This document shows, in pieces, positions 288 through 326 of a stretch of DNA of 977 bases. The notes below the pieces were generated by a model. That model was not told where the DNA came from, did no database searches, and worked only from the letters and a program-made list of their open reading frames with translations. Within the stretch, counting starts at the first letter, position 1. Every line of letters starts with the position of its first letter. The position numbers and the translations under genes are program-made. The stretch is taken from assembly GCF_003334385.1 (NCBI RefSeq), contig NZ_QOWN01000139.1; one strand, 5' to 3'. This stretch comes from Escherichia coli. Lineage in GTDB: Bacteria; Pseudomonadota; Gammaproteobacteria; Enterobacterales; Enterobacteriaceae.

Positions 288-313
288 ATAATAAAAAACC
301 CGCACGCGGCGGG
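288..313 (-). terminator. Candidate Rho-independent terminator or attenuator hairpin between the tail-completion gene and the major tail gene
   Basis: Minus-strand RNA would read CCCGC-CGCGU-GCGGG (5-bp all-GC stem from + 299..303 pairing with 309..313, 5-nt loop 304..308), immediately followed by UUUUUUAUUAU (+ 298..288). The stem is short, so strength is uncertain. On the + strand the hairpin is followed by GTATGGGG rather than a T-run, so it looks unidirectional for the gene-sense strand. Confidence 0.4.
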
Positions 314-326
314 GTATGGGGTTTGT

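Follow-up and report, generated by a model that had tools for sequence, protein, structure and literature searches.

Internal terminators have been recognised within the single-promoter late operon of the P22-like phage L, where partial termination or the halting of non-antiterminated transcription has been proposed for such elements, and of internal late-operon terminators in general it has been stated that 'their roles are not known' (PMC8022706). Q antitermination of late transcription is established for Stx phages, in which the 3′ end of the tR′/StxS terminator has been mapped by Term-seq; such data exist for E. coli O157 Sakai (PMC7547250). In phage lambda (J02459), all six late-operon gaps of at least 41 nt hold a hairpin followed by a T-rich run (6098..6117, 7163..7180, 14248..14265, 15462..15483, 18920..18935 and 19612..19633; ΔG −9 to −17), and of these, the hairpin preceding the major capsid gene E ends 17 nt from its start codon and the one preceding J ends 21 nt from that of J. 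The GenBank record of HK97 (AF069529) labels 6692..6719, which separates genes 11 and 12, as 'terminator, putative' and holds seven putative terminators in positions 1–14155 (terminase through tail genes). That of HK542 (JQ086373) places a 'rho-independent terminator' at 6642..6664. The HK97 and HK542 entries are database predictions.

We analysed a 977-nt stretch of Escherichia coli DNA (contig NZ_QOWN01000139.1; hereafter the window) that carries a hairpin at the site orthologous to these HK97 and HK542 features. In all three, the tail terminator/completion gene is followed by a hairpin, a U tract, a Shine-Dalgarno sequence and the ATG of the major tail gene, in this order. As the orthologue of an annotated HK97 feature the element is already known, and it is one of many in lambdoid late operons. 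It differs from its HK97 counterpart in strength, the HK97 stem (GAACCCGCC/GGCGGGUUU, −16.1 kcal/mol) being longer and more stable than the 5-bp stem of the window (−8.5 kcal/mol). HK97 and HK542 also have an additional terminator directly after the major tail gene, which is absent from the prophage represented by the window, where this gap is 14 nt. No counterpart precedes the major tail gene V of lambda, where the U–V gap is only 7 nt.

Phage L shares with the window intrinsic-terminator-like hairpins inside a single-promoter, Q-antiterminated late operon, but the phage L example follows the procapsid module, whereas the window element precedes a tail gene. The tR′/StxS terminator, downstream of pR′, is an intrinsic terminator of the same transcription unit and is overridden by Q-modified polymerase; it is, however, the primary regulatory terminator beside the promoter and gives rise to a stable sRNA, while the putative terminator of the window lies ~20 kb downstream.

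The hairpin and its setting in the late operon

The whole window is covered by a 99.9%-identical E. coli prophage and by many phages of the Stx1a, Stx2c and PPompW types. All of its genes lie on the minus strand, and the RefSeq annotation of the 99.9%-identical prophage places three genes across it. The features are as follows.

684..977, minus strand: 3′ part of a head-tail gene of the HK97-gp10 family, running off the window (RefSeq annotation of the 99.9%-identical prophage, open reading frame list)
343..687, minus strand: tail terminator/completion gene gp17, homologue of HK97 gp11, 114 amino acids, TGA stop at 345..343 (open reading frame and annotation)
314..342, minus strand: spacer of 29 nt from stop codon to hairpin, G-poor and pyrimidine-rich; its sequence is not conserved (unalignable between sublineages)
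299..313, minus strand: putative terminator hairpin CCCGC-CGCGU-GCGGG, five G-C pairs and a 5-nt loop, −8.5 kcal/mol; kept with compensatory changes
288..298, minus strand: U tract U6AUUAU, starting at the first base after the stem and forming a U-rich leader, predicted single-stranded, that abuts the Shine-Dalgarno sequence
281..287, minus strand: major-tail Shine-Dalgarno sequence CAGGAGG, with GGAGG at 285..281 and 4 nt to the ATG, conserved in the alignment
1..276, minus strand: major tail subunit gene, 5′ part; HK97 gp12 homologue, ATG at 276..274 (annotation, translation)

The earlier note on this DNA had called a tail-completion gene upstream of the hairpin and the major tail gene downstream of it, and both calls agree with the RefSeq annotation and with PHROGs. 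The gp17 product matches phrog_347 ('tail terminator', E = 2e-17), and the major tail protein, which has 80% amino-acid identity to HK97 gp12, matches phrog_158 ('major tail protein', E = 1e-115). The latter (prophage 15702..16418) has at its C terminus a domain that matches Hoc-like (Ig-like) decoration families (phrog_2973), and for some of its relatives the annotation reads 'immunoglobulin domain-containing protein'. In the 99.9%-identical prophage, the portal gene (prophage coordinates 11584..14168) is annotated as frameshifted, and this prophage copy may be defective.

On the minus strand the hairpin consists of a 5′ arm CCCGC (313..309), a loop CGCGU (308..304) and a 3′ arm GCGGG (303..299). 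The order of hairpin, U6AUUAU and Shine-Dalgarno sequence is as the earlier note described it (minus-strand coordinates 313..281). Its distance from the upstream gene needs correcting: the hairpin was placed 66 nt past the upstream stop, but it begins 29 nt past the gp17 stop, and 66 nt is the length of the entire intergenic spacer (342..277). The hairpin lies on the sense strand of the operon in untranslated RNA, and the 29-nt spacer probably gives a terminating ribosome room to clear it. A poly-pyrimidine run, CUUUUUCUUUUUUUCU, lies directly 3′ of the gp17 stop (327..342, minus strand) and differs in length between close relatives.

The predicted fold energy of the hairpin is −8.5 kcal/mol (RNAfold), more negative than the limit of about −6 kcal/mol that the earlier note had set for its refutation. 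The z-score is −1.45 to −1.62, and 17–21 of 200 shuffled sequences were equally stable. A consensus scan scored the hairpin as terminator-like, with the tail TTTTTTATTA; the same scan expects 0.8 ± 1.0 terminator-like sites by chance per window. Judged from this single sequence, the hairpin is weak and unremarkable. Its stem is also among the weakest of its family, with 5 bp and −7.5 to −8.5 kcal/mol in a family that ranges from −4 to −18 kcal/mol (median −12). On the plus strand no U tract follows the stem, so that the signal is one-directional, and the 11-nt U-rich tract upstream of the Shine-Dalgarno sequence is present and predicted to be unpaired. Taken together with the comparison below, the element has a G+C-rich stem with a short loop, an adjacent U run, a sense-strand untranslated position and compensatory changes, as looked for in an intrinsic terminator.

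A second terminator-like hairpin, AGGUCAC-GGU-GUGACUU followed by a U-rich run (340..356, minus strand), overlaps the gp17 stop. It is broken in close relatives and, on this comparison, is probably incidental. The small open reading frames listed across the spacer were set aside as mechanical.

The late, Q-dependent setting that the earlier note had supposed is borne out by the gene order of a 99.1%-identical Stx1a phage, in which Q, stx1AB, lysis, terminase, head and tail genes follow in one orientation and the element lies ~20 kb after Q. The full 99.9%-identical prophage has the same layout. This prophage contains further elements of the same type, which end 21 nt before the protease/major-capsid start, 22 nt before the tape-measure start (hairpin and U tract at 17120..17137) and 51 nt before the J start (22938..22961). 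The cassette before the protease/major-capsid fusion gene (hairpin, U tract and CAGGAGGC; prophage 9396..9437) is identical to the major-tail cassette at 24 of 27 positions, counted from GCGG through CAGGAGGC; the likeness could reflect duplication or a shared constraint. A stable hairpin that has no U tract follows the capsid gene of the prophage (about 11390..11407).

Conservation across related phages

For the comparison we used ~330 HK97-gp12-type loci, taken from annotated phages and from four scans of viral contigs, with E. coli, Salmonella, Klebsiella, Morganella, Cronobacter and Burkholderia represented; a scan of genome contigs with the major tail protein yielded no confirmed relative. 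In nearly all of these loci, 41–66 nt separate the tail-terminator gene from the major tail gene. A sense-strand hairpin with a perfect stem and a U tract is present in 155 of the 158 unique 70-nt upstream sequences, and in 151 of them its ΔG is ≤ −7. At that threshold, hairpins were found in 2.9% of dinucleotide shuffles, 2.0% of coding windows and 32 of the 158 reverse complements. It is this comparison with relatives that lifts the hairpin above chance. One Pseudomonas relative has a 6-nt gap and lacks the hairpin.

The earlier note had proposed that a functional stem would be kept, with compensatory changes, in homologous prophages, and this is what the homologous loci display. There are 66 distinct stem variants, among them CCCGC/GCGGG, ACCCGCC/GGCGGGU, GACCGCC/GGCGGUU, AGACCGC/GCGGUCU, GACCGUC/GACGGUU, AAGCUGC/GCAGCUU, AGCCACC/GGUGGUU, GCCGCC/GGCGGC and GGCCCGC/GCGGGCC, and five of the seven stem positions have changed on both sides. 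Pairing, tallied from the loop outward, holds in 95.5% of cells, compared with 73% in column shuffles (maximum 76.6%) and at most 56% for slid partners, in a count of our own devising that was made on detection-selected hairpins, is fitted to the structure and is hence biased towards pairing. RNAalifold predicted no pairs on MAFFT alignments of the hairpins, in which the stems are out of register because loop lengths differ.

The sequence that follows the stem is equally constrained. When the most stable hairpin of each spacer was taken, with no U tract required for its detection, T occupied positions +1 to +4 after the stem in 94, 98, 99 and 90% of 142 unique spacers, respectively. A is nearly absent at +1 to +4 and common at +6 to +8, which means that the constraint is specific for U and goes beyond mere AU-richness. 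In every lineage the U tract continues straight into the Shine-Dalgarno sequence. The distance from hairpin to ATG is held at 18–26 nt, and that from stop codon to hairpin is 1–30 nt, mostly 15–22. Two E. coli sublineages align with 76.5% identity from the hairpin into the first part of the major tail gene; a conserved island spans hairpin to start codon, and the spacer upstream of it is unalignable.

Purifying selection acts strongly on the structure of these internal terminators, on their U-specific tail and on their placement beside the ribosome-binding site; they must therefore do something. The element of the window is real and under selection, yet ordinary rather than unusual.

Possible functions of the element

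We favour, at a probability of roughly 55%, an intrinsic terminator at which unmodified RNA polymerase stops and which Q-modified polymerase disregards. A U-specific tail that directly adjoins a covarying G-C stem, present on the sense strand and not on the other, marks an intrinsic terminator, and this signature, the Q-type operon and the established antitermination by Q together argue for a terminator that Q overrides. The 66-nt spacer would then be a compact cassette comprising a ribosome-clearance spacer, the G-C hairpin, the U tract, the Shine-Dalgarno sequence and the ATG of the major tail gene. In a lysogen, polymerase arriving from stray, moron-derived or read-in transcription would lack the Q modification and would be released at the U tract, before the tail genes, presumably to the benefit of the lysogen. 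After induction, Q-modified polymerase from pR′ would read past the signal and transcribe the entire operon. On the read-through mRNA the hairpin and the U-rich tract would flank the major-tail ribosome-binding site on its 5′ side, and this flank probably aids independent, high-level translation initiation of the gene.

Several observations sit less easily with a terminator. The stem of the window is among the weakest of its family, with a z-score of about −1.5, and one would not expect a terminator immediately ahead of the gene whose product is required in the greatest amount. Burkholderia phages also conserve the hairpin although no Q-type antiterminator is annotated or recognisable in them. 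In Burkholderia phage KS9, for example, the hairpin is kept before the major tail gene and the annotation includes no Q-type antiterminator; two candidate genes (10274..11419), located between the replication and the HNH-endonuclease/terminase genes, match only PHROGs of unknown function.

The weak single-sequence statistics would suit a chance hairpin or a neutral relic, such as the terminator of a lost moron or the scar of a module junction, and the HK97 hairpin before the tape-measure gene does belong to a moron gene (gene 15). Its presence in nearly all unique orthologous sequences from six genera, with a stem kept by compensation, a tail specific for U and a constant location, makes this extremely unlikely, and the comparative data effectively refute it. 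A role as the main translation or mRNA-stability element of the major tail gene, with the terminator likeness secondary, is somewhat unlikely and is not exclusive of termination. The hairpin would shield the ribosome-binding site from upstream mRNA structure and block RNase E scanning from the 5′ side, and the single-stranded U-rich tract would offer S1 a binding site or the ribosome a standby platform, allowing initiation that is strong and uncoupled. Such a role would account for a U tract that adjoins the Shine-Dalgarno sequence in every lineage and for a hairpin fixed in its distance to the ATG whereas its distance to the stop codon varies; the invariant 18–26 nt and the near-identical cassette before the capsid gene do point to a link with translation initiation, and another hairpin lies 22 nt before the tape-measure start. 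In the window itself, the Shine-Dalgarno sequence and AUG fall within a −9.1 kcal/mol hairpin, where a flanking standby site would help initiation, but this sequestering hairpin is not conserved in relatives. Known AU-rich enhancers and standby sites resemble the window in having a single-stranded U/A-rich tract (here 11 nt) directly 5′ of a strong Shine-Dalgarno sequence, on a gene that, like the major tail gene, needs very high expression. They require neither U specificity nor strict adjacency to a G-C stem, and both are seen in the window family. The requirement for U and the exclusion of A at +1 to +4 is instead a termination signature, and termination explains the U-specific pattern beside the stem better than an enhancer or standby site does. 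The elements of lambda and HK97, moreover, also precede low-copy genes (J, lom and I-like) or follow genes.

The start-codon hairpin, GAGGCAGA-AUG-UCUGCUUU (266..284, minus strand; z −2.67), pairs the Shine-Dalgarno sequence and holds the major-tail start codon in a 3-nt loop, which is odd for a gene that needs high expression. We considered it as a part of the element and rejected it, as it is not conserved in most relatives.

A leaky attenuator, effective in lytic growth even against antiterminated polymerase and so setting the ratio of head/neck to tail transcripts, would agree with the proposal of partial termination for late-operon terminators and with the presence of several like elements along the operon. 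Q-modified polymerase, however, resists intrinsic terminators (PMC7547250). The polarity is also wrong, and all tail genes further downstream are essential. In siphoviruses the copies of major tail protein far exceed those of the tail terminator protein; the idea of an attenuator, which the earlier note had raised, fits poorly because the downstream product is needed in far greater numbers than the upstream one, and we regard it as improbable. Alternatively, the 3′ end of the tail-terminator gene might give rise to a small Hfq-binding RNA, perhaps active in lysogens, whose own 3′ end would be set by the terminator. Terminator hairpins that end in a U6 tail are the classical sites for the proximal face of Hfq (PMC4104026), and the Hfq-binding sRNA isrK gives a sub-threshold Rfam match over 396..293. 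At 17.7 bits, this match is far under the gathering threshold of 50 bits, and only the terminator stem supports its alignment; sequence conservation does not extend upstream of the hairpin, and the consensus scan found no promoter-like site in the window, all of which make an sRNA very unlikely. The Hfq-CRAC list of sRNAs retains only sites antisense to coding regions or over 100 bp away from them, a filter that would exclude a sense-strand site such as this one. We accordingly rejected membership of isrK (RF01394), and also that of the Trp_leader leader-peptide attenuator (RF00513), which scored 16.5 bits against a threshold of 41, with the terminator stem as its best-aligned part.

Implications for lambdoid late operons

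An intrinsic terminator overridden by Q carries little weight as a discovery, as it fits the textbook read-through of late-operon terminators by Q-modified polymerase. More speculatively, HK97-like and other lambdoid phages may place a dual-purpose cassette before the capsid, major tail, tape-measure and J genes, one that would terminate unmodified polymerase and, on antiterminated mRNA, control how much protein is translated by serving as a 5′ insulator or standby platform. We hold this idea tentatively and think it rather unlikely; if true, such cassettes would help to encode virion stoichiometry, and would explain why gaps of 40–66 nt are kept in otherwise tightly packed phage genomes. The comparative result sharpens a small question, namely whether internal terminators serve as a safeguard, a translation aid or a stability element, with selection that spans enterobacterial and Burkholderia phages. 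For Stx phages and other EHEC prophages, leak-proof late genes would bear on the cost of lysogeny and on virion production.
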